Assembly (NCBI GenBank): GCA_036244995.1
Contig: BTTF01000001.1
Coordinates: 1-53,862 of the forward strand
DNA from: a bacterium
Lineage (GTDB): Bacteria; Nitrospirota; Thermodesulfovibrionia; Thermodesulfovibrionales; JdFR-85
DNA: 53,862 nt
Reading direction: 5' to 3'
The notes beneath the pieces are model-generated. The model was not told the DNA's origin and made no database searches. It was given only the letters and a program-made list of their open reading frames with translations. Positions within the stretch are counted from its first letter, which is position 1. Every line of letters starts with the position of its first letter. Positions 14,343 to 34,210 of this stretch are shown here, one piece after another. Position numbers and translations under genes: made by a program.

Positions 14343-14682
14343 AAACTCTTAGTATACTACAATATGGGACTTCAAGGAAATTCCGGGCTCACCCCCCCCT
14401 ATTACCCATTTCAGCTTAAGGCTGTTTTGGGTAACGGAGCCGACCTTGACAGGTCAGTCTGACCACATCTTGCACAGACGATTGTACCCCCCCACGCATC
14501 CTTTGCAAAAGCTTTACCGCGGGATCGTCAAAACACTCCTCATGCCATTCATACAGATGGGCACTGTATGCCTGTTTTCTTGTAAAAAGGGGTATAATAG
14601 TCAGCAGAAAGATATCCGGGTGCTGCCGGGATAAGCTTATCTTTATGCCGCTACCGGTTGACACACAGTCACACTTCCAAGA

Positions 14683-15849
14683 ATGAACATAATAGAAGAA
14701 TTTATAGAGAAAGAATCAACAAGTGGCATATTGCTGATACTTGCGACTGTTTTGGCATTAGTATTCAGTAATACCTCGTTATCAGTATGGTATGACTCCT
14801 TCCTGCATGTCCCTGTGGGAATACATGTCGGCACATTAAATCTGGAAAAATCTCTTTATCACTGGGTAAATGATGGTCTGATGGCGATTTTCTTTCTGTT
14901 AATCGGCCTGGAAGTAAAGAGGGAAATAGTAGAAGGTCATTTATCATCTTTAAGCCAGGTTGCACTACCTGGAATTGCAGCCGTTGGCGGAATGGCTGTT
15001 CCAGCGGTAATCTATTTAATATTCAACCAAAACCATCCAGTCGCGGTAAATGGATGGGCAATACCGACTGCGACTGATATTGCCTTTGCGTTAGGCGTTC
15101 TCTCCCTGTTAGGCAAGCGGGTTCCGGTTTCTCTTAAACTGTTTTTAATGACGTTGGCAATTATTGATGATTTGGGGGCAATTATAATTATTGCCATATT
15201 CTACACAAGCAAACTATCCATGTTATCCATCGCGGTTGCAGCAGTTTCTTTTGCAGTTTTAATCACTCTTAACAGATTTGGTATCTCAAAGAAAGCGGCT
15301 TATTTCATCGTTGGCAGTGTATTGTGGGTTAGTGTTCTTAAATCAGGGGTTCATGCAACATTGGCAGGCGTGATATTGGCGTTTACTATTCCACTGCACG
15401 CAAAGGGTGAGAATAATAAACCCGTATCACCTGCAAAAGAGATAGAACATGATCTTCATTTCTGGGTGGCGTTTCTCATTCTGCCTCTGTTTGCCTTTGT
15501 TAATGCAGGAGTGAACGTTACACAAATATCCTTTGGCCAAATGTTTGGTTCAGTCCCTCTGGGCATCATCCTTGGGTTATTTGTTGGTAAGCAACTTGGA
15601 GTTTTCGGTTTCAGCTGGCTTGCAATAAAGTACAAAAAAGCAGAGCTTCCAAAAGACAGCAACTGGCTCCAGTTCTATGGGGTATCAGTGTTAACGGGCA
15701 TCGGATTTACCATGAGCTTATTCATCAGCTCATTAGCATTTGAAGATGCACGCGTTTTTCAATATACAGATAAGCTGGCAATACTTATAGGGTCATTTCT
15801 CTCGGGAATTGTTGGGTTTTTAGTGCTGAGATCAGGTAAAAACGGATAA
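14683..15849 (+). CDS. nhaA: Na+/H+ antiporter NhaA
   Basis: 388 aa, collinear with NhaA. It has the conserved IPTATDIAFALGVL and LAIIDDLGAI (DD) motifs. Confidence 0.9.
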   Translation: MNIIEEFIEKESTSGILLILATVLALVFSNTSLSVWYDSFLHVPVGIHVGTLNLEKSLYHWVNDGLMAIFFLLIGLEVKREIVEGHLSSLSQVALPGIAAVGGMAVPAVIYLIFNQNHPVAVNGWAIPTATDIAFALGVLSLLGKRVPVSLKLFLMTLAIIDDLGAIIIIAIFYTSKLSMLSIAVAAVSFAVLITLNRFGISKKAAYFIVGSVLWVSVLKSGVHATLAGVILAFTIPLHAKGENNKPVSPAKEIEHDLHFWVAFLILPLFAFVNAGVNVTQISFGQMFGSVPLGIILGLFVGKQLGVFGFSWLAIKYKKAELPKDSNWLQFYGVSVLTGIGFTMSLFISSLAFEDARVFQYTDKLAILIGSFLSGIVGFLVLRSGKNG

Positions 15850-20022: not shown

Positions 20023-20838
20023 ATGAAAAAAACCATTGTTATAATGATGACTATCCTTACAGGCATGGTACTGCTGTTTGTTGCCGAAACAGGAGCATCA
20101 GCCTTTGGTGGATGTGAACAGGATTGCGGAAAGTGTCACTCCTTATCAAAGGGGGAGGCACAGGAGACGTTAAAGCAGCTGATCCCCGACATTAAAGTCC
20201 TCGGGGTCAGGATGTCCCCGTCAAGGGGGCTCTGGGAAGTATCACTGGAGACACATGGCAAAAAGGGTATTGCCTATATGGACTTCTCAAAAGAAAATGT
20301 CATCATCGGTCAAATTGTTAAGATAAAAACGAAGAAGAACCTCACCAGAAAACGGCTGATGGAGCTTAACAGTGTGGATTTTGCACAGATTCCCCTCAAT
20401 GATGCCCTTGTTATGGGTGACCCGAATGCAACTTATAAGGTCGTTGTCTTTGACGACCCGGACTGTCCATTTTGTGCAAAACTCCACAAGGAGCTAAAAA
20501 AAGTTGTTGAAAAGAGAAAAGACATAGCATTTTTTATCAAACTCTTTCCCTTGAAAATGCACAAAGATGCCTACCGGAAGGCCGTGGCTATCCAATGTAA
20601 GAAGTCCTTACAGCTTTTAGAGGATGCCTTTGCAAAAAAGGATATCCCCGACCCTGAATGTAAAACAGATATTATAGACAAGAACATTGAACTTGCCGGG
20701 AAACTCGGCATAACCGGCACACCAACCATTGTACTGGAGAACGGCAAGGTCCTTGGTGGTGCAATAAAGGCAGGGCAGCTTATAGAGCTTATTAACGATA
20801 AAGGGAACGGCTCCGGAGCAGATGAGACAAAAAAGTAA
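20023..20838 (+). CDS. DsbC-family thiol:disulfide interchange protein with an extra N-terminal Cys cluster
   Basis: Signal peptide. Thioredoxin-fold active site DDPDCPFCAKLH. Directly after the signal peptide lies GGCEQDCGKCHS, which contains a CXXCH-type motif. Confidence 0.8.
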   Translation: MKKTIVIMMTILTGMVLLFVAETGASAFGGCEQDCGKCHSLSKGEAQETLKQLIPDIKVLGVRMSPSRGLWEVSLETHGKKGIAYMDFSKENVIIGQIVKIKTKKNLTRKRLMELNSVDFAQIPLNDALVMGDPNATYKVVVFDDPDCPFCAKLHKELKKVVEKRKDIAFFIKLFPLKMHKDAYRKAVAIQCKKSLQLLEDAFAKKDIPDPECKTDIIDKNIELAGKLGITGTPTIVLENGKVLGGAIKAGQLIELINDKGNGSGADETKK

Positions 20839-20866
20839 ATATTCAGCTTTTATTTATGACCCTTGC

Positions 20867-20887
20867 AGACCTCTGAGAGGTCTTTTT
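20867..20887 (+). terminator. Rho-independent terminator after the DsbC-like gene
   Basis: AGACCTC-TGA-GAGGTCT (7-bp stem) followed by TTTTT. A second hairpin (AGCAAAAAG 20927-20935 with CTTTTTGCT 20952-20960, then TTTTT) follows it. Confidence 0.65.
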
Positions 20888-20966
20888 GTGAATTCTCCCC
20901 CTGTCGTATAAGAGTTCCCTGTCATAAGCAAAAAGACAGCTTTTCATCTGCCTTTTTGCTTTTTTC

Positions 20967-21022
20967 TTGACTAATATTTTTTTGAACAATTATTATAGCT
21001 GTGCTGTTGAATAATGCAATGA
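20967..21022 (+). promoter_or_regulatory. Sigma-70-like promoter plus conserved box, copy 1 (upstream of CBS/permease module 1)
   Basis: TTGACT 20967-20972, 18-nt spacer, TATTAT 20991-20996, then the box TTGAATAATGCAATGA at 21007-21022, which begins 11 nt after the -10. Confidence 0.5.
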
Positions 21023-21058
21023 CCATGTTGCGTTTAAAAACGTTCTGTGGAGGTTTAC

Positions 21059-21553
21059 GTGAAGGCAAAAGATATTATGGAGCAGGTAAAGGATTATTTA
21101 TCTCCTGACGACACCATCAGGAACGCCGTAAACAAGATGAGAGTTGTGAAGAGAGACGATGGTATAGTTGGCTTGAAAGGTATGATAGTGCTCGACAGCG
21201 AAGGCAACCTGGTCGGAATGGTTTCGGTTAAAGACATACTCAAGGCGATTATACCTTTTTATATGACGATGACGGAACTTGGGGAGTTTACATGGGAGGG
21301 GATGCTTGCGGAGATGACAAAAAAGGTGGCCGACAGGAAGGTGGAGGAGATAATGGTGAAGGATGTAATAACAGTTTCCGGGGATGCCCCGCTCATGGAG
21401 TGTGCCGATCTTATTATCAAACATAATCTCCAGAGGGTTCCTGTATTAAATAAAGACAAGAAAGTCGTTGGCATCATCTACGTGCGGGACCTCTATCATG
21501 CAATTGTAAAAGTTCTCCTGGATGACAAGGGGGAAGGGGTACATAATCTATGA
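21059..21553 (+). CDS. CBS-pair domain protein (module 1)
   Basis: Two CBS motifs (VKAKDIME... and VEEIMVKDVITV...LQRVPVLN...GIIYVRDL). The GTG start at 21059 is preferred: GGAGG lies 5 nt upstream and the N-terminus matches copy 2. The stop overlaps the next start (ATGA). Confidence 0.8.
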   Translation: MKAKDIMEQVKDYLSPDDTIRNAVNKMRVVKRDDGIVGLKGMIVLDSEGNLVGMVSVKDILKAIIPFYMTMTELGEFTWEGMLAEMTKKVADRKVEEIMVKDVITVSGDAPLMECADLIIKHNLQRVPVLNKDKKVVGIIYVRDLYHAIVKVLLDDKGEGVHNL

Positions 21554-22920
21554 CTCACGAAGCTGCCGCGGCATCCCAGCCCTTTGTAATGGACACAACC
21601 TTCTGGACTGCCACGACCATATTCCTGATCTCCTACGTTGTCATAATATCGGAAAAGGTACACAAGACAGTGGTTGCAGTCTTCGCTGCATCCCTGATGC
21701 TTGTGTTGAAAATACTTTCGCAGTATGAGGCTTTTCACGTTGAGGAATTAGGGGTGGACTGGAATGTTATCTTCCTGCTTATCGGAATGATGATAATAAT
21801 CAATCTTATGCGACCGACCGGTTTTTTTGAATATATAGCCATTAAAAGTGCAAAGGCCGGCAAGGGTGACCCCATGAGGATAATGATAATATTCGCGATT
21901 ATTACAGCAGTGTTGAGCGCGCTTCTTGACAATGTTACCACAGTGCTCCTGCTTGCCCCGGTCACTCTCCTGATTGCAGATGCCCTTGAGGTTGATCCGA
22001 TTCCGTTCCTGATTGTTGAGGCCATTGCATCCAATATCGGAGGCACTGCCACACTTATCGGTGACCCTCCAAATATCATGATTGCCTCAAAGGCAAAACT
22101 CAATTTCATGGATTTCATATACAATCTTACGCCGATTGTTATCATATTGATGGTTGTCCTTCTCCTTATTATCAAGATAGTCTTTGGCAGGAAACTGAAG
22201 ACCAGAGAAGAACTCAAACAGAGAATAATGCAGATGAACGAAAACGAGGCAATAAAAGACCCGTTAATGCTCAAAAAATCTCTCTTCGTCCTCGCCCTCG
22301 TACTTGTCGGGTTTGTATTTCATGGAACACTTCACCTCCAGCCTGCCACAGTAGCACTCTTCGGTGCAGGCCTGTTGCTTCTGCTGTCGGGCACCCATGA
22401 ACCACACCACGTCCTTGCCGAAGTCGAGTGGCCCACCATATTTTTCTTTATAGGTCTCTTCATACTTGTCGGTGGAGTGGTAAAGGTTGGGCTCATTAAA
22501 TGGATGTCTCTAAAAATGCTCGCCCTGACGCAGGGCAATCTCCTTGCAACAAGCATGATCGTAATGTGGTTCTCTGCCATAGCATCCGCAATCGTTGACA
22601 ATATTCCCTATGTTGCCACCATGAATCCCCTGATAATCGATATGGCAAAACAGATGTGGCCCCAGGAGACAGGACTGGCCCTCCTCAGGCATCCCGACCT
22701 GCTGCCTATCTGGTGGTCATTGGCACTCGGGGCATGTCTTGGGGGTAACGGCTCACCAATTGGCGCCTCAGCAAACGTAATAGTAGTTGGTATGGCCGAG
22801 AAGGCAGGGAAAAAGATATCCTTCATGAGATTTGTTGCATATGGATTCCCGATAATGCTTTTGACTGTCTTTATCTCCATGATATACGTGTGGCTGAGGT
22901 ATTACGTCCTTAAATGGTAA
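21550..22920 (+). CDS. ArsB/NhaD-superfamily (ion transporter superfamily, SLC13/CitMHS-like) permease (module 1)
   Basis: 456 aa with about 10-12 TM helices. LLDNVTTVLLLAPV and GGTATLIGDPPNIMIAS are typical of ArsB/NhaD/YbiR-type permeases. The substrate cannot be inferred. Confidence 0.75.
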   Translation: MTHEAAAASQPFVMDTTFWTATTIFLISYVVIISEKVHKTVVAVFAASLMLVLKILSQYEAFHVEELGVDWNVIFLLIGMMIIINLMRPTGFFEYIAIKSAKAGKGDPMRIMIIFAIITAVLSALLDNVTTVLLLAPVTLLIADALEVDPIPFLIVEAIASNIGGTATLIGDPPNIMIASKAKLNFMDFIYNLTPIVIILMVVLLLIIKIVFGRKLKTREELKQRIMQMNENEAIKDPLMLKKSLFVLALVLVGFVFHGTLHLQPATVALFGAGLLLLLSGTHEPHHVLAEVEWPTIFFFIGLFILVGGVVKVGLIKWMSLKMLALTQGNLLATSMIVMWFSAIASAIVDNIPYVATMNPLIIDMAKQMWPQETGLALLRHPDLLPIWWSLALGACLGGNGSPIGASANVIVVGMAEKAGKKISFMRFVAYGFPIMLLTVFISMIYVWLRYYVLKW

Positions 22921-23054
22921 TATCCCGCCATTGATAATCCGGTTAAAATACACGATAAGCTTCAGGGGGGGGGCCTCAACGGTTTGAACTCCTTCCGTCC
23001 TGCCGACGTATAATTTACTTTTAATCTCCTATAAAAATAAAAAATCCCACTTGC

Positions 23055-23111
23055 TTGACTAAGGATTTCCCCTGGCATTATGATACCCTGTATGGTTGCG
23101 TAATGCAATAT
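23055..23111 (+). promoter_or_regulatory. Sigma-70-like promoter plus conserved box, copy 2
   Basis: TTGACT 23055-23060, 18-nt spacer, TATGAT 23079-23084, and the box TTGCGTAATGCAATAT at 23096-23111. The upstream AAAATAAAAAATC(C/G)CCA(C/T)TT stretch is shared with copy 3. Confidence 0.55.
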
Positions 23112-23149
23112 TTGCTGTTTCAGTAAATCACAACCAAATGGAGGGTCAT

Positions 23150-23638
23150 GTGAAGGCGAAAGATATAATGGAACCGGTTAAAGATACCTTGACCCCGGAG
23201 ACCACCCTGAAAGATGCGGTTAACAGGATGAGGGTTGCCGGAAGGGGAGATGGCCGGGCCGGAGCAAAGGGTATGATTGTCCTTGATAATGGGAAGCTTG
23301 CAGGTATTGTCTCAATCAAGGATATCCTTAAGGCTATTATACCATCATACATGACCCTAACCGAACTCGGCGAGTTCACCTGGGACGGGATGCTCGAGGA
23401 GATGGCAAAAAAGGTCTCCGACAAGAAGGTAGAGGAGATCATGACAAGGAATGTGATAACTGTTTCAGAGGACGCCCCGCTCATGGAGTGTGCCGATCAT
23501 GTCGTTAAGTACAACCTCCAGAGGATTCCAGTGCTGAACAGAGATAAGAAGGTAGTTGGTATTATATACGTCCGGGATATCTATTATGCGATTGTCCGGG
23601 CCCTTTTTGACAATTTTGATAAGGAGGAAAAGAGATGA
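23150..23638 (+). CDS. CBS-pair domain protein (module 2)
   Basis: Paralog of 21059-21553, identical at most aligned positions by eye. GTG start at 23150 with GGAGGG 4 nt upstream. ATGA overlap with the next gene. Confidence 0.8.
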   Translation: MKAKDIMEPVKDTLTPETTLKDAVNRMRVAGRGDGRAGAKGMIVLDNGKLAGIVSIKDILKAIIPSYMTLTELGEFTWDGMLEEMAKKVSDKKVEEIMTRNVITVSEDAPLMECADHVVKYNLQRIPVLNRDKKVVGIIYVRDIYYAIVRALFDNFDKEEKR

Positions 23639-25005
23639 CACATGAAGCTGCCACAGCCTCACAGTCTTTTGTTATGGACACAACCTTCTGGACAGCCACT
23701 ATAATATTCCTCCTCGCCTATGCATTAATTATTTCAGAGAAAGTACATAAAACGGTTGTAGCCATCTTTGCTGCAGCCCTGATGATTGTGCTCAAGATAC
23801 TGGAGCAGAAAGAGGCCTTTCATTCTGAAGTGTTAGGTATAGACTGGAATGTCATATTCCTCCTCCTTTCAATGATGATAATAATCAATCTCATGAAACC
23901 AACCGGTTTTTTTGAGTACATTGCCATTAAAAGCGCTAAACTGGGAAAGGGCGAGCCAATGAGGATAATGACCATATTTACAATTGTTACGGCTATCCTG
24001 AGCGCCATTCTTGACAATGTTACCACAGTGCTCCTTATTGCCCCTGTTACCCTGCTCATCGCAGATGCACTTGAGATCGACCCGATACCCTTTTTGATTG
24101 CCGAGGCGCTCGCCTCCAATATAGGCGGCACCGCCACACTAATAGGTGACCCTCCCAATATCATGATAGCCTCAAAGGCACATTTTGATTTCATGGACTT
24201 TATCTATAACCTGACACCTGCAATCATTGTAGTAATGGCTGCCTTCCTCTTTATCCTGAAAATAATGTTCGGCAAGAAGCTCCATGTCAGGCCTGAACTG
24301 AAACAAAGGATATTGGAAATGAATGAAAGAGACGCTATAAAAGACCCGCTTATGCTTAAAAAGTCGCTCTTTGTCCTCTCAATTGTTATAGTTGGTTTTG
24401 TCCTGCATGGCATGTTCAACTATGAACCGGCAACAGTGGCCCTGTTTGGAGCAGGACTTCTACTACTGCTTTCAGGCACTCACGAACCACACAAAGTCCT
24501 TGCCGAGATTGAGTGGCCGACCATATTCTTTTTTATGGGACTCTTTATCATCATCGGGGGTGTCGTCAAGGTCGGGCTTATTAAATGGATGTCCATAGAG
24601 GTGCTTGCAATTACGCATGGAAACATGTTTGCAACGAGCATGCTAATAATGTGGTTTTCTGCCGTTGCCTCTGCCTTTGTAGATAATATTCCCTACGTTG
24701 CAACAATGAATCCCTTAATAATCGATATGGCTCATCAGGTCTGGCCGCACCTTCAGGGCTTAAAACTCCTGCATAATCCTGAACTCATGCCCGTTTGGTG
24801 GTCTCTATCTCTTGGCGCATGTCTTGGGGGTAACGGCACGGCTATCGGGGCATCTGCAAATGTGATTGTAATCGGGCTGGCCGAACGGGCAGGAAAGAAG
24901 ATATCCTTTATAAGGTTTATGGCCTACGGAATGCCCGTTATGATACTAACGGTATTTATATCTACTATTTATGTCTGGCTGAGATACTATATATTAAAGA
25001 TATAG
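23635..25005 (+). CDS. ArsB/NhaD-superfamily permease (module 2)
   Basis: 456 aa, the same length as 21550-22920 and collinear with it. The large majority of residues are identical by eye. Confidence 0.75.
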   Translation: MTHEAATASQSFVMDTTFWTATIIFLLAYALIISEKVHKTVVAIFAAALMIVLKILEQKEAFHSEVLGIDWNVIFLLLSMMIIINLMKPTGFFEYIAIKSAKLGKGEPMRIMTIFTIVTAILSAILDNVTTVLLIAPVTLLIADALEIDPIPFLIAEALASNIGGTATLIGDPPNIMIASKAHFDFMDFIYNLTPAIIVVMAAFLFILKIMFGKKLHVRPELKQRILEMNERDAIKDPLMLKKSLFVLSIVIVGFVLHGMFNYEPATVALFGAGLLLLLSGTHEPHKVLAEIEWPTIFFFMGLFIIIGGVVKVGLIKWMSIEVLAITHGNMFATSMLIMWFSAVASAFVDNIPYVATMNPLIIDMAHQVWPHLQGLKLLHNPELMPVWWSLSLGACLGGNGTAIGASANVIVIGLAERAGKKISFIRFMAYGMPVMILTVFISTIYVWLRYYILKI

Positions 25006-25074
25006 GAAATATCTTGATATCCGGACCTATAACTTCCCTTTAATATCCTATTAAAATAAAAAATCGCCATTTTC

Positions 25075-25130
25075 TTGACATATCTGCCAACAGAAGATTA
25101 TCATATCCTTGCAATTGCGTATTGCAATAT
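25075..25130 (+). promoter_or_regulatory. Sigma-70-like promoter plus conserved box, copy 3 (upstream of the TauE operon)
   Basis: TTGACA 25075-25080, 18-nt spacer, TATCAT 25099-25104, and the box TTGCGTATTGCAATAT at 25115-25130. Extra TTGCAAT half-sites flank it at 25109-25115 and 25136-25142. Confidence 0.55.
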
Positions 25131-25182
25131 TATCGTTGCAATAATCAACAGCACTGAATAGATGAATAAGGAGGCAATATTG

Positions 25183-26148
25183 ATGTCACGCACTTTGCGA
25201 AGGTTTCTCTTCCTTTTTGCAGTAGTGGCTATAGTTACAGGATTTTACAGCATTGCATTCGGTGAAGAACAGATAGTAGAGGTTGCTCAGAACGGAAGCG
25301 CCATTGTTTGGTGGATGTGGCCGGTAATCCTGTTTGTCTTTACCTTTTTTCTCGGTATCCTGGCAGTTGTTGCAGGTGTTGGAGGCGGGGTGCTGTTTGT
25401 TCCTATAGTAAGCAGTTTTTTCCCCTTTAACCTTGATTTTGTAAGAGGTGCCGGCCTGCTGGTGGCCCTTACAGGAGCGCTCTCTGCAGGTCCCGGATTG
25501 CTCAAGCGCGGACTCGCAGATCTCAGACTTGCACTCCCTATGGCACTTATAGCCTCCACATGCTCAATCTTTGGCGCCATGGTCGGCCTTGCACTCCCTA
25601 CGAATGTAGTCCAGACCGCACTTGGGGCCACGATCATCATGATCGTTATCATTATGGCTACAGCCAAGCGCTCGGATTTTCCGGAAGTTAAGCAGGCTGA
25701 TACACTCTCTTCAGTCCTCAGGATAACAGGCGTTTATTATGAGGAGTCTGCCGGCAAGCAGATTAACTGGCAGATTCACAAAACACCCCTTGGTCTCGCA
25801 CTCTTTATAGTAATAGGCTTTATGGCAGGCATGTTCGGCCTCGGTGCCGGATGGGCAAACGTACCCGTCCTTAATCTTCTCCTCGGCGCACCACTGAAAA
25901 TCTCCGTGGCAACGAGCGTATTTCTGCTTTCCATAACTGATACAGCAGCAGCATGGGTATACATTAACAAGGGAGCGGTGCTGCCATTGATTGCAGTCCC
26001 TTCCGTTGCCGGAATGATGCTCGGCACGAGAATAGGTGTTAGAATACTGGCAAGGGCAAAGCCCAAGGCAGTAAAATGGATTGTCGTAACCATTCTCTTC
26101 CTTGCCGGATTCAGAGCACTCTTAAAAGGTCTTGGAATATGGGGGTGA
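25183..26148 (+). CDS. TauE/SafE-family anion exporter-like membrane protein
   Basis: Multi-TM protein with GVGGGVLFVP in the N-terminal half and a repeated G-rich motif (FGLGAGWANVP) in the C-terminal half, typical of TauE/SafE (DUF81). The start is set at the ATG at 25183 (AAGGAGG lies 8 nt upstream). Confidence 0.75.
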   Translation: MSRTLRRFLFLFAVVAIVTGFYSIAFGEEQIVEVAQNGSAIVWWMWPVILFVFTFFLGILAVVAGVGGGVLFVPIVSSFFPFNLDFVRGAGLLVALTGALSAGPGLLKRGLADLRLALPMALIASTCSIFGAMVGLALPTNVVQTALGATIIMIVIIMATAKRSDFPEVKQADTLSSVLRITGVYYEESAGKQINWQIHKTPLGLALFIVIGFMAGMFGLGAGWANVPVLNLLLGAPLKISVATSVFLLSITDTAAAWVYINKGAVLPLIAVPSVAGMMLGTRIGVRILARAKPKAVKWIVVTILFLAGFRALLKGLGIWG

Positions 26149-26154
26149 CAAATT

Positions 26155-26568
26155 ATGAGTAATAAAACGAAGCCATCGGAAGAACAGCTGAAATATGCAT
26201 CCGTCCTCCAAACAATATCCCTTGGGGGGCTGGCGCTCCTGGTCGTCGGGTTTTTTGTTTATTTAAGCGGCATCCTTCCAACCCTGATTCCGGCTTATGA
26301 AATCCCGGAATACTGGGGAATGAGGGTACACGATTTCGTTGAAAAAACAGGAATGCCAACCGGATGGGACTGGGTACCTTTACTTAATCATGGGGATATA
26401 GTAAGTTTTCTGGGAATAATCCTGTTGGCTGCAGGCACACTCGTCTGCTTTGCAGTTATACTTCCTAATTTTATACGCAAAAAAGATACGCCTTTTGTGA
26501 TTATTATCATTGTGCAAATCCTGGTCCTCTTGCTTGCAGCAAGCGGGTTTATTACAGGGGGTCATTAA
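26155..26568 (+). CDS. Small integral membrane protein (DUF1634-like?)
   Basis: 137 aa with 3-4 predicted TM helices, 6 nt downstream of the TauE gene. The family name is uncertain. Confidence 0.5.
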   Translation: MSNKTKPSEEQLKYASVLQTISLGGLALLVVGFFVYLSGILPTLIPAYEIPEYWGMRVHDFVEKTGMPTGWDWVPLLNHGDIVSFLGIILLAAGTLVCFAVILPNFIRKKDTPFVIIIIVQILVLLLAASGFITGGH

Positions 26569-26570
26569 AT

Positions 26571-27407
26571 ATGAATACACTTGATGCGTGCCCGGATATA
26601 AGGCTTGAGAGACTCCTCTTATGTACAGACGGTTCGGAATTCAGCGAAGGTGCTATCAGGGAGGCTATAAGCATTGCAAAAAGATGCAACAGCAAACTGT
26701 ATGTCATCTCTGTAGTGGAAGTAAACCCTGAATTGGAGGTGTATGCCCCCGGACTTGCAGAAAAGATAGAAGAAAATACAAGAACACACCTCGATGACAT
26801 AAAGGAAAGGGCTGAAAAAGAGGGGGTTACTTGTGAAAAAATAATACACAAAGGCGAGAAGACTTACAGCTACATAGTTAAGGAGACGTCCAGACTAAAG
26901 GCTGACCTGATCATAATGGGCAGACACGGCAGGACAGGCATTAAAAGACTAATGATGGGAAGCGTTACCGCAAGGGTCATTGGACAGACTGCATGCAATG
27001 TGCTTGTTGTGCCAAGGGCGGCAGTCTTTAAGTGTAAAAAGATACTGATTGCTACAGATGGCTCGGAATTCAGCGAGAAAGCAGTTCATGAGGCCCTCGA
27101 TATTGCTGCGGCGTGTGAGAGTGAGGTTGTTATCGTATCGGTGGCTTCAAGCGACTCCGAAATCAAGGAAGCAGAGACATTTGTCCAGGAGGCCCGTAAA
27201 ACGGCCGAGAAAAAGGGGTTAAAAGTTACGACCGGAATACCCGTGGGCACTGTCTATGAGATAATCATTGATGTTGCTGAAAAGGAAAATATTGACCTTA
27301 TCGTTGTTGGAAGCCACGGCAGAACAGGACTTAAGAGGCTATTGATGGGAAGTGTAGCAGAAAGGGTTATCGGTTATGCCTCCTGTACGGTATTGGTAGT
27401 CAAGTAA
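26571..27407 (+). CDS. Tandem universal stress protein (2 x UspA domain)
   Basis: 278 aa. Two USP domains, each ending with the ATP-binding-type motif G(R/S)HGRTG(I/L)KRL(M/L)MGSV...VL(V)V. Confidence 0.85.
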   Translation: MNTLDACPDIRLERLLLCTDGSEFSEGAIREAISIAKRCNSKLYVISVVEVNPELEVYAPGLAEKIEENTRTHLDDIKERAEKEGVTCEKIIHKGEKTYSYIVKETSRLKADLIIMGRHGRTGIKRLMMGSVTARVIGQTACNVLVVPRAAVFKCKKILIATDGSEFSEKAVHEALDIAAACESEVVIVSVASSDSEIKEAETFVQEARKTAEKKGLKVTTGIPVGTVYEIIIDVAEKENIDLIVVGSHGRTGLKRLLMGSVAERVIGYASCTVLVVK

Positions 27408-27427
27408 TAATATATTGCAACCTGTTA

Positions 27428-28786
27428 TTATTCTTCCATGTCATATCTCTTAATCTTTCTCCAGAGGGATACCCTGTCTATTCCAAGCACCTGGGCTGCC
27501 TTTGACTTATTGCCACCAAACTCTTTCAGCACCCATTGTATGTATGCCTTCTCCTGATCTTCAAGGGATGGGACTTTCCCTCCACGCTTCCTGAACGTCC
27601 TGATACTCAATTCCCTGAGATCATCAGGGAGATGTAACGTTTCAAGGGTTTTCCCTTTAGAGAGTGCGATCCCCCTCTCGATGATATTCTCCAACTCCCT
27701 TACATTGCCCGGAAAGTTGTAACTGTTAAGCACGCCTGACATATCATCGGAAATATCAGACACATCCTTTCCCATGATCGAAGAGTATTTCCTGAGGAAG
27801 TGATAGCACAGCAACGGGATATCTCCCTTTCTCTCCGAGAGTGGCGGCAGGTGGAGCGTTACTACATTCAGACGGTAATAAAGGTCCTGCCTGAACTCAC
27901 CGCTCTCGATAACTTCCTGTATATTCCTGTTGGTGGCTGCAATGAACCTCACATCCACCTTTACCGGTTCAGTGCCCCCAACACGCTGGTATTCTCTTTC
28001 CTGTACAACCCTCAGGAGTTTTACCTGCATGGATGGGCTCATTTCCGTAATTTCGTCCAGAAACAAAGTACCCTTGCTTGCCACCTCGATAAGACCTTTT
28101 TTAAGGAATGTTGCACCTGTAAATGCCCCCTTCTCATGTCCAAAAAGCTCGTTTACGAGGAGCCCCCCTGAAAAAGCCCCGCAGTTGATGGCAATAAAGG
28201 GGCCTTCGGACCTCCTGCTGTAAAGGTGGACATACCTTGCCACCAGTTCCTTACCCGTTCCGCTTTCACCCGTGATAAGGATATTACAGTCGGTTGGCGC
28301 AACATCCCTGGCTGTATCCAGTATCCTGAGCATCCGGGGGTCCTGGGTGATTATCCTCACCCTGTCCGTGATGTTCTCAAGACTCTCCCTGAGCTGCCTG
28401 TTCTCTTTCTTGAGCCTTACCTTTTCCGAGGCCTCCCTTACGATCTTTCTTACCTCATCCAGCTTAAAGGGCTTTGCTATATAATGGTAAGCCCCGTGTT
28501 TCATTGCCTCTATGGCAGTCTCAACCGTGGCATATCCAGTAATCATTATTACCTCTAAATCCGGGTTGGATTCCTTGCATCTTTTGAGTATCTGCATTCC
28601 GTCAACCTTCTCCATCTTCAGGTCGGTCAGAACAATGTCAAACTCATGTCTGCTTAATAATTTTAAGGCGTTCTGCCCGTTTAAGGTTGTTTTTATCTCG
28701 TAACCTTCCTTGTTCAAGACATGCTCAAGGTTCTTTATGGCTATCTTTTCGTCATCAACAATCAGAAGTTTTATTCTGTTTTCCAT
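27428..28786 (-). CDS. Sigma-54-dependent response regulator (NtrC family), apparently orphaned
   Basis: REC domain (LLIVDDE...LTDLKM), AAA+ domain with GESGTGKE and the GAFTGA loop (EKGAFTGA), and a C-terminal Fis-type HTH (KSKAAQVLGIDRVSLWRKIK). Confidence 0.9.
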   Translation of the reverse strand: MENRIKLLIVDDEKIAIKNLEHVLNKEGYEIKTTLNGQNALKLLSRHEFDIVLTDLKMEKVDGMQILKRCKESNPDLEVIMITGYATVETAIEAMKHGAYHYIAKPFKLDEVRKIVREASEKVRLKKENRQLRESLENITDRVRIITQDPRMLRILDTARDVAPTDCNILITGESGTGKELVARYVHLYSRRSEGPFIAINCGAFSGGLLVNELFGHEKGAFTGATFLKKGLIEVASKGTLFLDEITEMSPSMQVKLLRVVQEREYQRVGGTEPVKVDVRFIAATNRNIQEVIESGEFRQDLYYRLNVVTLHLPPLSERKGDIPLLCYHFLRKYSSIMGKDVSDISDDMSGVLNSYNFPGNVRELENIIERGIALSKGKTLETLHLPDDLRELSIRTFRKRGGKVPSLEDQEKAYIQWVLKEFGGNKSKAAQVLGIDRVSLWRKIKRYDMEE

Positions 28787-29224
28787 CCTCGTCTCCTTTC
28801 AGTGGGAGTTTTATGATAAAGGTTGTTCCTGCACCCGACCGGCTTTTCAGGTCAATAGTCCCGTTGTGCTGCTTTATAATCTCATGACTGACATACAGCC
28901 CGAGCCCCGTACCCATTCCAACATCCCTTGTTGTGAAAAACGGGTCAAATATCTTGTTGATTATCTCCTCGGGGATACCCCTGCCTGTATCCGAAACCCG
29001 GACCTCAACCTCTTTTTTGTCCCTGTTCTCTCCGGCCGTTATTATGATCTTGCCTTCCACTCCCTTATTACTATTAAATTGACGAATATGATTGAGGCGA
29101 TGAAAAGTATAAGCAGAAAGCTTCCTGTATATCCCAGCTTTATCTTCTGCAGTATACTCCTGTTCTTAACAAACATAAAATATAGTAACATTCGATATTG
29201 CAAATTGCAACTATAGCGCTGCAT
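28755..29224 (-). pseudogene. Decayed sensor histidine kinase (TM segment plus the HATPase_c end only)
   Basis: Two short ORFs in different frames. ORF 29224-29042 encodes one TM helix. ORF 29060-28755 encodes only the G1/G2 ATP-binding part (VSDTGRGIP...[17 protein letters not shown]...GTTFIIKLP), paralogous to the C-terminus of the kinase at 29337-30896. No DHp/H-box fits into the 470 nt available. Confidence 0.65.
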
Positions 29225-29336
29225 CCAAAACTTCGGATATGATACAATATATAAAGTAGATACAGTTTTTGCAAGGCTCTAAACCCGGCGAAAATGGATA
29301 ATATCTTCATTAAAAGAAAAGGAACTTAATAGGTCC

Positions 29337-30896
29337 GTGTCGATAAAAAAGAAAATAATTCTCAGTTTCTTTATCAGTTTTTCAATCATTGCAACACTTG
29401 CCGTAGCAGCTTATCTGGACTTTCGCGAGACCAGAACCGAGTTTAAATATCTTGAACTTGCAGAAAGCATCAGGGGTAAGACCTTACAGTTAAGAAGGCA
29501 TGAAAAAAACTTCTTTCTTTACGGAGACAGCAAGGAAATTGATCTTATTCACAGATATATAGGAGAGATTGAAGCGCTTATTAAAGATGCCAAGCCTTAT
29601 ACCCGCAACGACAATCTTGATAAATTGAATGTCAAACTGAAGGAATTCAGTCTGCAGTTTGAAAACATTACCGCCATGGCTTCCGGTTTCCATGAAGAGT
29701 TGGCAAGCCTAAAGCCAAAAAAACCGTCATATCTTTTTTTAATACCCATAATTAAAGCCACTTTTCTGGAACACCCCCTGCAAAATGCACAACTCCTGAA
29801 GCGATTTTTTTATATATCCAAAAAAGATGACTATATTACATTCCTCAAAAGACTGGGGAATGAGATTAAAGATATGAGGAAGACCGGCGAAAAAATTATC
29901 GGGATATCTAAAGAACTGGATAGGGGTGCCAGGGAAAGGGTGCAGAATATTATTAATGTTACCAAGGTAGCTGTTCTGGTATTCTTGCCTATATCCTTCC
30001 TGATCGGGTTTGTATCGCTATTTTATATCAGCCAGAACATAGTTAACAGGTTGAAGAAACTGATGGAGACGATTGAAAAAAGTGGTGCCGGTTTCTTTTC
30101 TCCCATGCCTTTTCCGGCAGGCCATGACGAGGTCAGTACATTAATAAGGACATATAATAATATGGCAGAGGCATTACATGCGCGGGAGGAACTACTCAGG
30201 ACAAAAGAAGAAGAGTTGATTCAGAGTAAAAAGCTTGCAGCCATAGGCACCCTTGCATCCGGAGTGGCTCACGAATTAAACAACCCCCTGAATAACATTC
30301 ATATATCGGCACAGATATTGGCAAAGGAGATGGGTGAGGACTGTACGGGTATTATAGAGGAGACAGTTGATGATATATTGAGTCAGACTTTCCGGGTAAA
30401 GAAAATAGTTGCAAATCTGCTGGATTTTGCAAGGTCAAAGGAGCCGGACTTTCAAGAAATAAACATCGTTGATATTATACAAAAGACATATGCTCAGGCA
30501 CAGAAAATAACGGCATTCAAGGATATAGAGTTTGTATTAGAATCTCCGCCTGAAGTCTTCCTCCAGGCGGACCAGGTCCAGATTGAACGGGTCTTCGTCA
30601 ATCTCTTCACCAACGCAGCTGATGCCATGGAGGGCAAAGGAAAACTTCATGTGAAGGTTTTTCCCGAAGAAGATACGGTTAAAATAGAGGTGACGGATAC
30701 AGGTAACGGGATACCTCCCGAGGTTAAAGACAAGATTTTTGACCCCTTCTTTACAACCAGGGACAGGGGAACCGGTCTCGGCCTGTCCATAGTATATAAC
30801 ATCATCAAAAACCATGGCGGCAGTATAACCGTGGAGAGCACGGCAGGAGAAGGGACCACATTCAGAATCTTCCTGCCGAGGTACAGAGAGGTTTAA
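29337..30896 (+). CDS. Sensor histidine kinase with an extracytoplasmic helical sensor domain
   Basis: 519 aa. TM1, about 170 aa of helical region ([13 protein letters not shown]), TM2, a linker, H-box [12 protein letters not shown], then the N, G1 and G2 boxes (DTGNGIP, GTGLGLS). GTG start. Confidence 0.85.
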
Positions 30897-32234
30897 ATGA
30901 GCATTAAAATCTTTATTGCAGAAGACGAAGAGATAACGCTGAAACATCTGATGTATGCCCTTGGAAACGAGGGATATACAGTTTCCGGGGCAAAGGATGG
31001 TCTTGAGGCATGGCAGAAAATCGAAAAGGAGCATTTTGATATTGTTATTACGGATATAAAAATGCCCGGACTTGACGGCATGAGCCTGCTTGAAAAGATT
31101 AAAGAAAAAGGGATGGAGACGGATGTGATCGTTATTACGGGTTTCGGGAGCATTGATTCAGCAGTGGAGGCCATGAAAAAAGGGGCATATGATTATATAA
31201 CCAAACCCTTTAATCTGGATGAATTATTATTAAGGGTCAGAAAGATATGTGAAAAAAAAAGCCTTGAAAGAGAAAACATAGCGCTGAAGACCTCACTCGG
31301 TATAGATAAAGACCTCCCTGCGTTTATCGCAAAAAGCAAGAAGATGAAAGATGTGATTAATGTTATCAGGAGCATAACTGCGTCTGATTGCAACGTTATC
31401 ATCACAGGAGAAAGCGGTGTTGGCAAGGGACTTGTTGCAAAGCTTATTCACTATACAGGGACACGGGTAAACAGGCCTTTCCTTGCAATCAACTGTGCAA
31501 TCTTTACAGAGGAACTCCTTGCCAGTGAACTTTTCGGCCATGAACGGGGGGCCTTCACAGGGGCGGTAACCACAAAAAAGGGTCTTTTGGAGATTGCAGA
31601 TACAGGGACTCTTTTTCTCGACGAGATAGCCGAGATGTCACCGTCCCTGCAGGCAAAGCTCCTGAAGGTCATCGAGGACAGGGAGTTTTTCAGGGTTGGG
31701 GGCACAAGACCTGTGAGGGTGGATGTCAGGTTCATTGCTGCCACAAACCAGGATATAAACGGACTTGTCACCAAAGGCACTTTCAGAAAGGATCTGTTCT
31801 ACAGGCTCAATGTAATGGATATCTTTATACCCCCATTGCGGGAAAGGAAGGAGGATATCCTGCCCCTGAGCAAATACTTCCTTGAAAAACACGCCAAAAA
31901 GGCCAGGAAAGATATCAAGGGGTTTGCAAGGGAGACAATGGAGATACTGAAATCATACAGCTACCCTGGAAATGTCAGGGAGTTGGAAAATATTATCGAA
32001 AGGGCAGTGATTCTGGAACAAACATCGCTTATCCAGCCTAAAAACCTCCCGGTTACCATGCAGATGTTCCAGATTGAAACGATAGATCCGAGCAGGTTAA
32101 GGACAATTGACGAGCTTAACAGGGAATATGCCTTGAAGATTCTCGATCACCTTGAAGGGAACAAGACACGGGCTGCTAAAATGCTGGGTATATCAAGAAC
32201 CAGCCTCTGGCGGATTCTCAGAGAAAAAGAGTAA
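30897..32234 (+). CDS. Sigma-54-dependent response regulator (NtrC family)
   Basis: REC (IFIAEDEE...ITDIKMPG), AAA+ (GESGVGKG, ERGAFTGA) and a Fis HTH (KTRAAKMLGISRTSLWRIL). The start codon abuts the kinase stop (TAAATG). Confidence 0.9.
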   Translation: MSIKIFIAEDEEITLKHLMYALGNEGYTVSGAKDGLEAWQKIEKEHFDIVITDIKMPGLDGMSLLEKIKEKGMETDVIVITGFGSIDSAVEAMKKGAYDYITKPFNLDELLLRVRKICEKKSLERENIALKTSLGIDKDLPAFIAKSKKMKDVINVIRSITASDCNVIITGESGVGKGLVAKLIHYTGTRVNRPFLAINCAIFTEELLASELFGHERGAFTGAVTTKKGLLEIADTGTLFLDEIAEMSPSLQAKLLKVIEDREFFRVGGTRPVRVDVRFIAATNQDINGLVTKGTFRKDLFYRLNVMDIFIPPLRERKEDILPLSKYFLEKHAKKARKDIKGFARETMEILKSYSYPGNVRELENIIERAVILEQTSLIQPKNLPVTMQMFQIETIDPSRLRTIDELNREYALKILDHLEGNKTRAAKMLGISRTSLWRILREKE

Positions 32235-32241
32235 AGCTCAA

Positions 32242-32510
32242 AAAAACTTCTTTTAGCCTCTCGATTTCTTCACGATTTCTCACGATTTTTAACAAACTAA
32301 AGAATATCTCTCCTCTGTTTCTTATCCTGATGCTATCTTGAAGGCATCGTGAATCTTAAAAACTTCTGTAGCCTCACGATTTAAAGGAATCAAGCAGTTT
32401 CTTTCTGTTTCAACTCCAACCCTCCAACCCTCCAACCCTTCATATCAGGTTCTCCAGCCCAAACAGGACAGCTTCCGGCTTCTCCAACCAAAACCGTTCA
32501 GTACCGTTCA
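32242..32510. repeat. Repeat-rich intergenic region (several direct-repeat families)
   Basis: A 25/26-nt repeat AAAAACTTCT(T)TAGCCTC(T/A)CGATTT occurs at 32242-32267 and 32358-32382. Three 10-bp-phased (T/C)CACGATTT(C/T)T units lie at 32261-32290. CTCCAACC x3 lies at 32414-32437. ACCGTTCA x2 (10-bp phase) lies at 32493-32510. Confidence 0.8.
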
Positions 32511-32575
32511 AAAATGAAACACCAGACACCATGTCTCCTCCTTAAAATATCCTTTAAAATCAAGCTATTAGCGGT

Positions 32576-32591
32576 TGGCATCAGATTTGAT
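32576..32591 (+). promoter_or_regulatory. Candidate sigma-54 (-24/-12) promoter
   Basis: TGGCAT-CAGAT-TTGAT compared with the consensus TGGCAC-N5-TTGCW. The GG-to-TTG spacing is correct and the -12 C is replaced by A. It lies 48 nt upstream of the ATG at 32638 and directly downstream of a sigma-54 activator gene. Confidence 0.5.
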
Positions 32592-32637
32592 TATATGTTA
32601 GCAGTAATTGAATAAATCGCTTGAAAGGAGAAGGAGC

Positions 32638-33120
32638 ATGAAAGGCAGGGTTTTATTCGTAACAAAGGAAGATGAGAATTTCAGGGATGGGTTCTCATAT
32701 GTAATGGAGCTGTCAAAAATAGTAAAGGGAGGTATATACATCCTGTTTTACCACGATAAAAACCTTATTAAGAGATTTGAAGATGATATGGCAGCGGCTG
32801 CCCTTGCCGAGGCAGGCGAGTTTGAGACTGCGAAACAGATTATTCACGAAGAAGAAGTCCTTACCAGGGCTGATGCAAGCAAGAAGGTTGCTTTGCTGAG
32901 GCAGGAATGCTCTGACCCTGAAATGCTTGTGGATTACCGCCTCGCAACAGGCGATCTCGTCTCTGCAATAAGGGGTGTCCTGCAGGATAAAGCAAGTATC
33001 GAGATGGTAATACTCAGCCCCTCACTAATGGACAGTGGCAAGGCTATCAGCCTGAAGAAATTAAGAAGGTATATAACAAGACCTATTGTGACTATGTCAA
33101 GACCTGCAAGTGCCCAATAG
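32638..33120 (+). CDS. Hypothetical protein, weakly USP/adenine-nucleotide-alpha-hydrolase-like, carrying an AEAGEFETA motif
   Basis: Start at the ATG at 32638 (AAGGAG lies 7 nt upstream). MKGRVLFVT... and ...VILSP resemble USP-fold beta strands. Residues LIKRFEDDMAAAALAEAGEFETAKQIIHEE (32764-32853) recur in the next ORF. Confidence 0.6.
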   Translation: MKGRVLFVTKEDENFRDGFSYVMELSKIVKGGIYILFYHDKNLIKRFEDDMAAAALAEAGEFETAKQIIHEEEVLTRADASKKVALLRQECSDPEMLVDYRLATGDLVSAIRGVLQDKASIEMVILSPSLMDSGKAISLKKLRRYITRPIVTMSRPASAQ

Positions 33121-33144
33121 GTATCAAGAAAGGAGGAACAAAAA

Positions 33145-33342
33145 ATGAAGGTCTTAAGAAGAATGTTAAAGAGATTTGAAGGTGAGATGGCGGCTGTAGC
33201 ATTTGCAGAAGCCGGTGAATTTGAGACTGCAAGAGAAATTCTGAAGAGTTCCGTGAGTGAAGAAGTATCCAATGGCAACAGCGTTTTTGACAGTGAGGAA
33301 AGCCAGGGATTGAATATCTTAAAGCACGCTGAAAGCAAGTAA
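33145..33342 (+). CDS. 65-aa protein sharing the AEAGEFETA motif
   Basis: AGGAGG lies upstream. MLKRFEGEMAAVAFAEAGEFETAREILKSS (33163-33252) is about 30 aa paralogous to the preceding gene. The remainder is an acidic/polar tail. Confidence 0.55.
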   Translation: MKVLRRMLKRFEGEMAAVAFAEAGEFETAREILKSSVSEEVSNGNSVFDSEESQGLNILKHAESK

Positions 33343-33357
33343 AAGGAGGCAGTAAAA

Positions 33358-34143
33358 ATGGGCATGTTCAATGTATTGTTGACCCTCGGGGTTGTAGGTG
33401 GTTTCCTTTCAGGTCTGCTGGGACTTGGAGGGGCAATTATCATGATCCCTCTCATGTTAACTGTTCCGAAGATACTGGGGGTAGGCGCACTTTCGATGAA
33501 AGCGGTTGCCGGACTATCCATGATTCAGGTGGTATTTGCATCTTTATCCGGTGTTGCCCGACATAGAAAAAACAAGTTTGTCAGCATGAAGCTTATATAT
33601 ACACTGGGAATAGCCATGGCGATTGGTTCGGGGTTCGGCTCCATAATCTCAAAGTATATGAGCAACCAGGTGTTGATGATTGCGTTTGGCTTTATAGCGG
33701 TGATAGCAGCCTTGATGATGTTCATACCACCGAGGTCTGAGGGTTCTGAAAGTATTACCAATCCTGATGACATACAGTTTAACAAACCACTTGCCGCTGT
33801 ACTTGGGGTAATAATCGGAAGTCTGGCGGGTATGGTTGGCGCCGGAGGCGGGTTTATATTGATCCCGGTGATGATTTACGTCCTTAAAATCCCTATAAGA
33901 ATCACTATAGGTACCAGCCTTGGAGTAGTACTCATCGGCGCAGTTATAGGCGCTATCGGCAAGATGGTTACAGGACAGGTAGATTGGTTACTTGCGTTGG
34001 CTCTCATTATCAGCTCGGTCCCATCCGCCCAGTTAGGCAGTCTTGTGAGCAAGAAAACCCCGGCGCTGATTCTGAGATACTCACTCACTCTCCTGATAAT
34101 TTTAACAAGTGTTGAAATATGGTATAAGATTATCGTGGTATAA
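33358..34143 (+). CDS. TauE/SafE-family membrane protein (second copy in the window)
   Basis: 261 aa with 7-8 TM helices. GLGGAIIMIP and GAGGGFILIP are the duplicated TauE/DUF81 signature. Confidence 0.8.
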   Translation: MGMFNVLLTLGVVGGFLSGLLGLGGAIIMIPLMLTVPKILGVGALSMKAVAGLSMIQVVFASLSGVARHRKNKFVSMKLIYTLGIAMAIGSGFGSIISKYMSNQVLMIAFGFIAVIAALMMFIPPRSEGSESITNPDDIQFNKPLAAVLGVIIGSLAGMVGAGGGFILIPVMIYVLKIPIRITIGTSLGVVLIGAVIGAIGKMVTGQVDWLLALALIISSVPSAQLGSLVSKKTPALILRYSLTLLIILTSVEIWYKIIVV

Positions 34144-34176
34144 ATTACGCTCACTCCACTCCACCCCGTCAAGAGG

Positions 34177-34210
34177 AACACACAGAGGTGAACGCCTCTG
34201 TGTGTTTTTT
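34177..34210 (+). terminator. Strong rho-independent terminator
   Basis: AACACACAGAGG-TGAACG-CCTCTGTGTGTT (12-bp stem) runs directly into a T run; the TTTTTT at 34205-34210 includes the last two stem positions. Confidence 0.85.

Follow-up and report, generated by a model that had tools for sequence, protein, structure and literature searches.

A DVU3305-type dyad at three transporter promoters of a Thermodesulfovibrionales bacterium, and its probable recognition by an NtrC-family regulator encoded beside them

The DNA analyzed here (the window: 53,862 nucleotides, positions 1 to 53,862 of contig BTTF01000001.1, assembly GCA_036244995.1) comes from a bacterium of the Thermodesulfovibrionales (Nitrospirota) and carries three transporter operons next to the gene of a response regulator, RR1. 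Each operon is preceded by a sigma70-type promoter with a 16-bp box at its predicted transcription start, and a related box precedes the RR1 unit. By their sequence, the boxes are the cores of 15-bp dyads matching the motif that was verified by electrophoretic mobility shift assay (EMSA) for DVU3305 of Desulfovibrio vulgaris, and RR1 is the most likely protein to recognize them. The promoters, operons and regulatory genes of the locus are as follows.

20967-20996, plus strand: sigma70-type promoter of the CBS1-permease 1 operon, TTGACT-N18-TATTAT, 10 of 12 matches; kept in 8 distinct orthologous leaders.
21059-22920, plus strand: operon 1, a CBS-pair protein (CBS1, 21059-21553; GTG start at 21059 after GGAGG) and a CitMHS/ArsB-superfamily permease (permease 1, 21550-22920), by Pfam.
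23055-23084, plus strand: sigma70-type promoter of the CBS2-permease 2 operon, TTGACT-N18-TATGAT, 10 of 12 matches; A-rich UP-like stretch upstream at 23034-23048.
23150-25005, plus strand: operon 2, a CBS-pair protein (CBS2, 23150-23638) and a permease (permease 2, 23635-25005), by Pfam.
25075-25104, plus strand: sigma70-type promoter of the operon for TauE, a 137-aa protein and a universal stress protein (USP), TTGACA-N18-TATCAT, 11 of 12 matches; UP-like stretch upstream at 25053-25066.
25183-27407, plus strand: operon 3, a TauE/SafE permease (25183-26148), a 137-aa membrane protein (26155-26568) and a tandem-USP protein (26571-27407), by Pfam and translation.
27428-28786, minus strand: RR1, an NtrC-family response regulator with a receiver domain (REC, PF00072), a sigma54-interaction AAA+ domain (PF00158) with GAFTGA, and a Fis-type helix-turn-helix (HTH, PF02954).
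28786-29150, minus strand: remnant of the cognate histidine kinase of RR1, in which a membrane piece from the N-terminus is fused to a HATPase fragment from the C-terminus (residues 426-514 of HK2 align by tblastn to 29075-28803).
29337-32234: an intact kinase/regulator pair, HK2 (29337-30896) and RR2 (30897-32234).

The three promoters described in the earlier sequence-only reading as TTGAC(T/A)-N18-TAT(T/G/C)AT are confirmed, being the top three sigma70-like matches within 20800-29500 (TTGACW-N18-TATNAT). They are clearly paralogous, sharing the UP-like stretch, the length of the 18-nt spacer and the discriminator; the stretch AAAATAAAAAATC(C/G)CCA(C/T)TT, reported from the same reading for the second and third copies, is likewise present. 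The boxes that it had located, TTGAATAATGCAATGA at 21007, TTGCGTAATGCAATAT at 23096 and TTGCGTATTGCAATAT at 25115, all start 11-12 nt past the end of the -10 hexamer. In a search of the window with the box consensus TTGCGTAWTGCAATAT, allowing up to 3 mismatches, 4 matches were found (0.73 expected), a number reached in none of 100 shuffles; box 1, in the CBS1 leader, has 4 mismatches and is therefore not among them. The copy on the minus strand, ahead of the decayed kinase and its regulator, was also found, at 29195-29210 and not at 29197-29212 as first given, an offset of 2 nt.

The functional unit appears to be slightly different from the box. It is a 15-mer dyad, (G/A)TTGC-N5-GCAA(T/C), which starts one base upstream of the box (site A) and is accompanied in every leader by a second dyad (site B), whose start lies 21-22 bp downstream of the start of site A. 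The sites, with their scores on the matrix described below, are listed here.

21006-21020, plus strand: site A of the CBS1 leader, GTTGAATAATGCAAT, holding box 1; score 13.4, rank 4 in the window, 2 mismatches to GTTGC-N5-GCAAC.
21027-21041, plus strand: site B of the CBS1 leader, GTTGCGTTTAAAAAC, a weaker dyad; score 9.0, 21 bp from site A; orthologues keep GTTGCATTTAAAAAC.
23095-23109, plus strand: site A of the CBS2 leader, GTTGCGTAATGCAAT, holding box 2; score 17.4, rank 2, 1 mismatch to the published consensus.
23117-23131, plus strand: site B of the CBS2 leader, GTTTCAGTAAATCAC, degenerate here; score -2.3, 22 bp from site A.
25114-25128, plus strand: site A of the TauE leader, ATTGCGTATTGCAAT, holding box 3; score 13.3, rank 5; extra TTGCAA half-site at 25109-25114.
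25135-25149, plus strand: site B of the TauE leader, GTTGCAATAATCAAC; score 14.4, rank 3, 1 mismatch, 21 bp from site A.
29197-29211, minus strand: fourth site, GTTGCAATTTGCAAT; score 19.5, the best 15-mer of the window; it precedes the kinase-remnant/RR1 unit, an autoregulatory position.

The additional TTGCAAT half-sites noticed earlier in the third copy are found at 25109 and 25136. The fourth site is kept in two loci of close relatives (L163 and L164; L numbers denote loci), and its flanks, TATAG...ATCGAATG-TTACT, resemble the CBS2 leader. Site A of that leader is identical in 9 of 10 close-relative CBS2 leaders, the exception being L021 with GTTGCTAAATGCAAT. Its site B scores 8.4-8.5 in the orthologues L002, L084, L085 and L021, where it reads GTTGCA(C/G)TAAATAAC. 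In one further locus (L081:2445-2478, on contig UOGI01000356.1, which is shared with L164 and comes from a relative 97-99% identical to the window) the CBS2 leader shows a 17-bp tandem duplication, with TTGCGTAATGCAATATT occurring twice, so that it holds one additional copy of site A.

The identity of the motif was established from published sites. DVU3305, a sigma54-dependent response regulator, binds GTTGC-N5-GCAAC (Rajeev et al. 2011, PMC3333781); in EMSA it shifted GTTGCGATATGCAAC but not a mutant of the dyad arm (PMC3333781). Its targets, as mapped by DNA affinity purification and microarray (DAP-chip), are its own operon DVU3303-3305, the divergent genes DVU3302-3298 (membrane, hypothetical and UspA proteins), the kdp operon, where the site is GTTACATTTTGTAAC, and a TRAP transporter (PMC3333781). 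The published orthologue sites include two from Thermodesulfovibrio yellowstonii, ATTGCAAAATGCAAC and GATGCAAATTGCAAC (PMC3333781). A symmetrised weight matrix was built from 34 published sites only, and all 53,848 15-mers of the 53.9-kb window were scanned with it. The five best matches, at 29197 (19.5), 23095 (17.4), 25135 (14.4), 21006 (13.4) and 25114 (13.3), all fall in the four leaders. These are the 5 window 15-mers with scores of at least 12, against about 1.0 expected from 200 shuffles; the training sites themselves score 9.0-23.8, and the background frequency of scores of at least 10 is 1.7e-4. The window sites (scores 13.3-19.5) thus have the arms and the spacer of a DVU3305-type site. 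It was the match at 25135 that allowed the conserved downstream segment, GTTGCA...AAC, to be recognized as a second dyad.

Other readings of these letters were set aside. The motifs of CytR, Rex, FNR/CRP-type regulators, TyrR, OpcR and Zur/Fur misfit in geometry or in half-sites. An arrangement of direct heptad repeats (TTGCnnn TTGCAAT) is less simple than a dyad, and the matrix from published sites scores even the divergent versions. A second sigma70 promoter, with the box as its -35 and TACAAT as its -10, is plausible in some TauE leaders only and misfits the CBS leaders and the distant relatives. TGCAAT-N7-TTGCA fails as a sigma54 promoter, its spacing being 2 nt too long and GG being absent.

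Conservation was followed in genome and metagenome collections, which were scanned with permease 2 and yielded 160 loci, nearly all from Nitrospirota/Thermodesulfovibrionales. From these, 41 distinct orthologous or paralogous CBS-permease and TauE leaders were taken, and all of them share a single layout: TTGAC(T/A), exactly 18 nt, TAnnnT, 9-11 nt, the 14-nt box core, 7-8 nt, TT(G/A/T)C(A/G), 5-7 nt, AAC and a ribosome-binding site. The sigma70-type hexamers with their 18-nt spacer are kept in all 41, as is the spacing of 21-22 bp between the starts of sites A and B, and an A-rich UP-like stretch precedes the TauE and most of the CBS promoters, the CBS1 copy being without it. Since sites A and B occur in all 41, two tandem sites account for everything that is conserved in the leader. 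In 35 of the leaders, neither site scores below about 8. Site B is weaker in five close-relative CBS2 leaders and in the CBS leader of L004, and L088 also falls short of about 8, with 4.6 for site A of the TauE leader and 6.2 for site B of the CBS leader. Divergent leaders, for example GTTGTCTTTTGTAAC and GTTTCAACTTTCAAC, still score 9-12.

Two observations on distant leaders may be added. In a locus from a different phylum (L069:1860-1935, Dissulfuribacterales), a TauE-137aa-CBS-permease operon is preceded by TTGACA-N18-TATGAG, 1 nt and then ATTGCATTTTGCAAC, which is the same promoter-plus-dyad layout as in the window. The TauE promoters of other distant relatives (L010:5390-5440, L006/L007 and L087) have an inverted repeat around the -10 that covaries between genomes, e.g., CCAGAGGAGT-AATAT-ACTCCCTGG; this repeat precedes a T-rich site A and resembles a terminator of the permease gene upstream, one that overlaps the TauE promoter.

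As the promoters are paralogous, the common box might be nothing other than a functionless residue of promoter duplication, and the shared UP-like stretch, spacer length and discriminator would fit such an origin. Among close relatives, however, the box varies at its central 3 nt only, and the dyad arms are unchanged, save for an A in place of C at one arm position in CBS1, whereas the spacer between -35 and -10, the inter-site segment and the segment after the box have diverged freely within each paralogue. Moreover, an independent matrix from another phylum finds the same motif, and the motif also stands at non-paralogous positions beside RR1 orthologues. Because the box is kept while neighboring non-functional positions diverge, mere residual homology is discounted and is the least probable of the explanations considered. 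The sequence-only reading had named a lack of conservation upstream of orthologous operons as the sign of such homology; the box is conserved there.

That the conserved segment acts as RNA, in the form of a hairpin of the 5' untranslated region, had been offered by the same reading as an alternative, and a small riboswitch was considered along with it. The element is predicted to be transcribed, TTGCAA is self-complementary, and a hairpin of 8-9 bp forms part of the minimum-free-energy fold in copies 1 and 3. The self-complementarity of the leaders is nevertheless accounted for by their conserved TTGCAA-like half-sites, which are themselves self-complementary. No relevant Rfam match was obtained at gathering or permissive thresholds (E up to 10), and the stability of the leader folds is not unusual (z-scores of -0.24, -1.5 and -0.38 against shuffles). 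RNAalifold predicted 0 pairs for 32 distinct aligned leaders; the covariation score of two candidate hairpins was equalled by 263 and 226 of 500 shuffles, respectively; variable positions are unpaired in 10-13 of the 32 sequences, and the core shows no compensatory change. In addition, a position upstream of promoters, in either context, is seen for the fourth copy and for the sites close to RR1 orthologues. Specific hairpins that were tried (TTGC with GCAA within the box, the box with the downstream TTGCA, and GUU with AAC) leave the variants TTACA, TTTCA and TTTCAAC uncompensated. A role as RNA is accordingly very improbable. The comparative leader alignment that had been proposed for separating the two kinds of conservation (41 leaders, 32 of them for covariation) favors the DNA dyad over RNA covariation. 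The description of the box as a dyad that overlaps the predicted transcription start and is common to both CBS/permease operons, the TauE-USP operon and the unit of the decayed kinase and its regulator is likewise supported.

As to the protein that recognizes the dyads, the sequence-only reading had seen no matching regulator gene in the window. The best candidate is in fact RR1, which that reading had called an orphan regulator, since regulators of its type have a published binding motif that the box matches. The translation of RR1 has all the marks of an NtrC-family sigma54-dependent regulator, namely a REC domain, an AAA+ domain with GAFTGA and a Fis-type HTH, and it retains the receiver residues D11, D12, D55 (the phospho-acceptor) and K. 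No NCBIfam equivalog cut-off was reached by RR1 or by the transporters, and RR1 is therefore given no finer name. Its orthologues form a large family, 70-97% identical across Thermodesulfovibrionia, and in those flanked by perfect dyads the recognition helix, GIDRVSLWRK, is identical.

The genomic context of these orthologues is informative. In L161, L165 and L167, RR1 orthologues of 72-74% identity adjoin the CBS-permease-TauE cluster, in the order USP, intact kinase, RR1 orthologue, USP-like 21x-aa gene and CitMHS-TrkA_C permease, and the genes 137aa <- TauE <- permease <- CBS converge on this block. A perfect dyad lies just past the regulator gene in all three, sigma54 promoters of the form CTGGCAT-N5-TTGC(T/A) follow it at a distance of about 70-85 nt, and the tandem dyads GTTGCATAAAAnAAC-N4-GTTGCAAnnTGCAAC overlap the kinase promoter. 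In L166, two dyads are located upstream of the sigma54 promoter of a TauE-USP-kinase-regulator operon. The sigma54 promoters near RR1 orthologues in these four loci conform to TGGCA(T/C)-N5-TTG(C/A), and matrix matches of at least 11 in the RR1-orthologue loci are almost all confined to the intergenic 6-9% of the sequence. The relatives thus present what is found for DVU3305, with sites beside the cognate regulator gene and upstream of the sigma54 promoters of neighboring targets. The intergenic dyads that flank RR1 orthologues, together with the identical recognition helix, make the link between the RR1 family and the dyad well supported by context.

The dyads could instead be genuine binding sites of another protein, be it an NtrC-family paralogue, whether RR2 (30897-32234) or another whose gene lies elsewhere, or a factor that is unrelated but similar in specificity. 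Paralogues can have near-identical motifs, and the kdp site is one at which DVU3305 and DVU3334 overlap; RR1, furthermore, is without its cognate kinase here, and in two loci with boxes (L012 and L080) RR1 was not found within 1.6 kb beyond USP. Against such a binder, it is specifically the RR1 orthologues that are flanked by perfect dyads, in four genomes. The recognition helix of RR2 differs (GISRTSLWRI versus GIDRVSLWRK, with 30% identity over the last 60 residues), and the region downstream of RR2 has different repeats (TCACGAT). The sole other classical transcription factor found in the window, apart from the NtrC-type regulators, is a distant LysR gene (3103-4074). The 137-aa conserved protein was also considered as a hidden regulator and was dismissed, its translation being that of a membrane protein. 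On balance another binder is unlikely, although it is the foremost of the alternatives.

The position of the sites bears on what binding would do. With transcription start points predicted from the promoters, the pairs of sites A and B span about +3 to +40. In the three leaders, the 40-55 nt that separate the sites from the start codons contain no GG-N10-GC element, and neither does the promoter region; a sigma54 promoter following the dyads is thus missing at the three transporter operons, as it also is at DVU3303-3305 in the published family. Candidate sigma54 elements in these leaders are not conserved among orthologues, and a scan with a loose sigma54 consensus was uninformative (259 matches, 238 expected). 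Owing to the location of the sites at about +3 to +40 of sigma70-type promoters and to the absence of a nearby sigma54 promoter, repression is the likeliest effect. An oligomer of RR1 would assemble on sites A and B, whose starts are 21-22 bp, or about two helical turns, apart, and would block RNA polymerase sterically or as a roadblock. Both CBS/permease operons and the operon for TauE, the membrane protein and USP would thereby be repressed together, and the fourth site, before the kinase-remnant/RR1 unit, would serve in autoregulation. It is therefore probable, from the sequence evidence, that the dyads are recognition sites of a DVU3305-type NtrC-family regulator, most likely RR1, which would co-repress three transporter operons and regulate its own unit. 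The sequence data show the identity of the motif, its conservation and its linkage to the regulator gene, from which binding by RR1 and a repressive effect are inferred. The earlier proposal of a repressor operator shared by the three operons was essentially right as to position, and repression would be its most natural consequence.

Action at promoters of other than the sigma54 type has precedents, among them that of Escherichia coli NtrC (below). DVU3305 binds the DVU3303-3305 operon, which is annotated as having no sigma54 promoter (Kazakov et al. 2015, PMC4641369). In D. vulgaris exposed to chlorate, mutants of DVU3303-3305 and mutants of the target anion transporter DVU3299 are opposite in the sign of their fitness, and these opposite signs fit negative control of the transporter. 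In the relatives with an intact kinase (L161, L165 and L167), the enhancer sites would drive the USP-like gene and a different permease, of the CitMHS-TrkA_C type; the system therefore looks like a switch, with one set of transporters on and the other off.

RR1 might, on the other hand, bind the same sites as enhancers, either activating an unrecognized or atypical sigma54 promoter or assisting the sigma70 promoter. RR1 keeps GAFTGA, in the relatives this dyad serves as a canonical upstream activating sequence, and NtrC enhancers are able to act from unusual positions (Kazakov et al. 2015, PMC4641369). The missing and unconserved sigma54 elements argue against this, as does a placement at +3 to +40, a roadblock position, where the sigma70 promoter is near-consensus and has an UP-like element. 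Activation from these sites is thus considered improbable, more so than recognition by another binder.

Several points weigh against repression by RR1. Enhancer-binding proteins are classically activators, and it is from position that repression would follow. In this clade RR1 has a truncated cognate kinase, the window's own CBS2 leader has a degenerate site B, and other paralogous regulators can share similar motifs, as DVU3334 does in binding GTTACATTTTGTAAC (PMC3333781). Finally, L012 and L080 carry boxes, yet no RR1 lies within about 1.6 kb beyond USP, so that the gene may lie elsewhere or be absent there.

The state of the kinase differs among the relatives. The same truncation is seen in L163 (9820-10032) and L164, the fragment amounting to about 70-100 aa in this clade, whereas intact kinases of 475-492 aa are found in L161, L165, L166 and L167. 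In the window, L163 and L164, whose RR1 proteins are 92-97% identical, the kinase fragment is accompanied by the absence of the sigma54-driven USP-like and CitMHS-TrkA_C genes and by duplication of the CBS-permease module. The site of the CBS2 leader and that of the RR1 unit (GTTGCGTAATGCAAT and GTTGCAATTTGCAAT) are close to consensus; across all leaders, the close relatives show no consistent gain in site score over relatives whose kinase is intact. RR1 is under strong purifying selection in this clade (92-97% identity) and may now be mainly a repressor, perhaps phosphorylated by the neighboring HK2, which is speculative. A tentative and rather doubtful interpretation is that an NtrC-type sigma54 activator, which ancestrally toggled two sets of anion/ion permeases, is here part-way to becoming a dedicated repressor of sigma70 promoters, a TyrR-like transition caught in nature.

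The wider surroundings form an island of ion and osmotic homeostasis (14683-15849 and 32608-38736). It includes a NhaA Na+/H+ antiporter, a second TauE (33358-34143), a second USP (34300-35196), TrkH (35229-36578), TrkA (36575-37243) and cardiolipin synthase (37276-38736). The gene order of operon 3 is conserved among relatives. Downstream of RR2 (32234-32608), TCACGAT(TT) repeats occur in both orientations, there are three copies of CAACCCTC, and about 115 bp are duplicated relative to L164; a sigma54-like promoter, TGGCATCAGATTTGAT, is located at 32576-32591, with a weak dyad, GTTCAAAAATGAAAC, 70 nt upstream (32506-32520). This region is probably the enhancer and promoter of a 170aa-65aa-TauE2-USP2-TrkH-TrkA-cardiolipin synthase operon. 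Homopolymer runs were observed in intergenic DNA, namely G8 between permease 1 and the CBS2 promoter (22963-22970) and C-runs upstream of nhaA (14391-14400). Farther away (40760-41243), a ParE-family toxin gene (40953-41243) follows a small antitoxin-like open reading frame and has a good sigma70-like promoter, TTGACA...TATAAT, at about 40703-40732.

These results extend an experimentally defined Desulfovibrio pair of regulator and motif to another phylum. They also suggest a regulon for an uncultivated hydrothermal Thermodesulfovibrionales lineage, in which universal stress proteins, a TauE anion permease and a pair of CBS-gated CitMHS/ArsB-type permeases would answer to a single regulator; their genes belong to an ion-homeostasis island that also encodes NhaA, TrkHA and cardiolipin synthase. 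The first reading of the window is corrected in two respects, in that the regulator gene is within the window and the element is DNA rather than RNA. The position of the sites is unusual but has precedents: to our knowledge, few cases are documented of enhancer-binding proteins placed to repress sigma70 promoters, and the 41 distinct leaders would provide a conserved natural example.

Among known systems, the DVU3305 regulon (PMC3333781, PMC4641369) is the closest. It has the same dyad, GTTGC-N5-GCAAC, and DVU3305 resembles RR1 in its REC-AAA+-HTH architecture, its length (451 versus 452 aa) and its genomic context, these being the grounds of the comparison. In both, the operon of the regulator carries sites without a sigma54 promoter, and the targets are membrane/anion-transport and UspA-domain proteins adjoining the regulator gene. 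Conservation of the motif in a Thermodesulfovibrio species had already been predicted (PMC3333781). The present system differs in belonging to Nitrospirota, in its targets (CBS and CitMHS-type permeases and a TauE operon), in its paired sites, 21-22 bp apart and downstream of sigma70-type promoters, and in lacking a Lon-protease response regulator partner and, in this clade, a full-length cognate kinase. The signature also differs, being GAFTGA in RR1 and GAFSGA in DVU3305.

For the placement of the sites, two enhancer-binding proteins provide the nearest parallels. The dyads of Escherichia coli NtrC at glnAp1 and at the glnL promoter (glnLp) overlap the sigma70 promoter or its start, and NtrC represses there while activating sigma54 promoters elsewhere. 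Unlike the sites in the window, which no sigma54 promoter follows, the repressing sites at glnA double as the enhancer for glnAp2 immediately downstream, and the NtrC motif, TGCACC-N5-GGTGCA, differs from the window dyad. TyrR and PhhR, members of the enhancer-binding family that act at sigma70 promoters only, are similar in combining AAA+ and HTH domains, in recognizing dyads of the 6-N6-6 type and in repressing the promoters of transporter genes. In contrast to RR1, TyrR has neither the sigma54-contact loop nor the receiver domain; RR1 has both, and its orthologues have canonical sigma54 targets.

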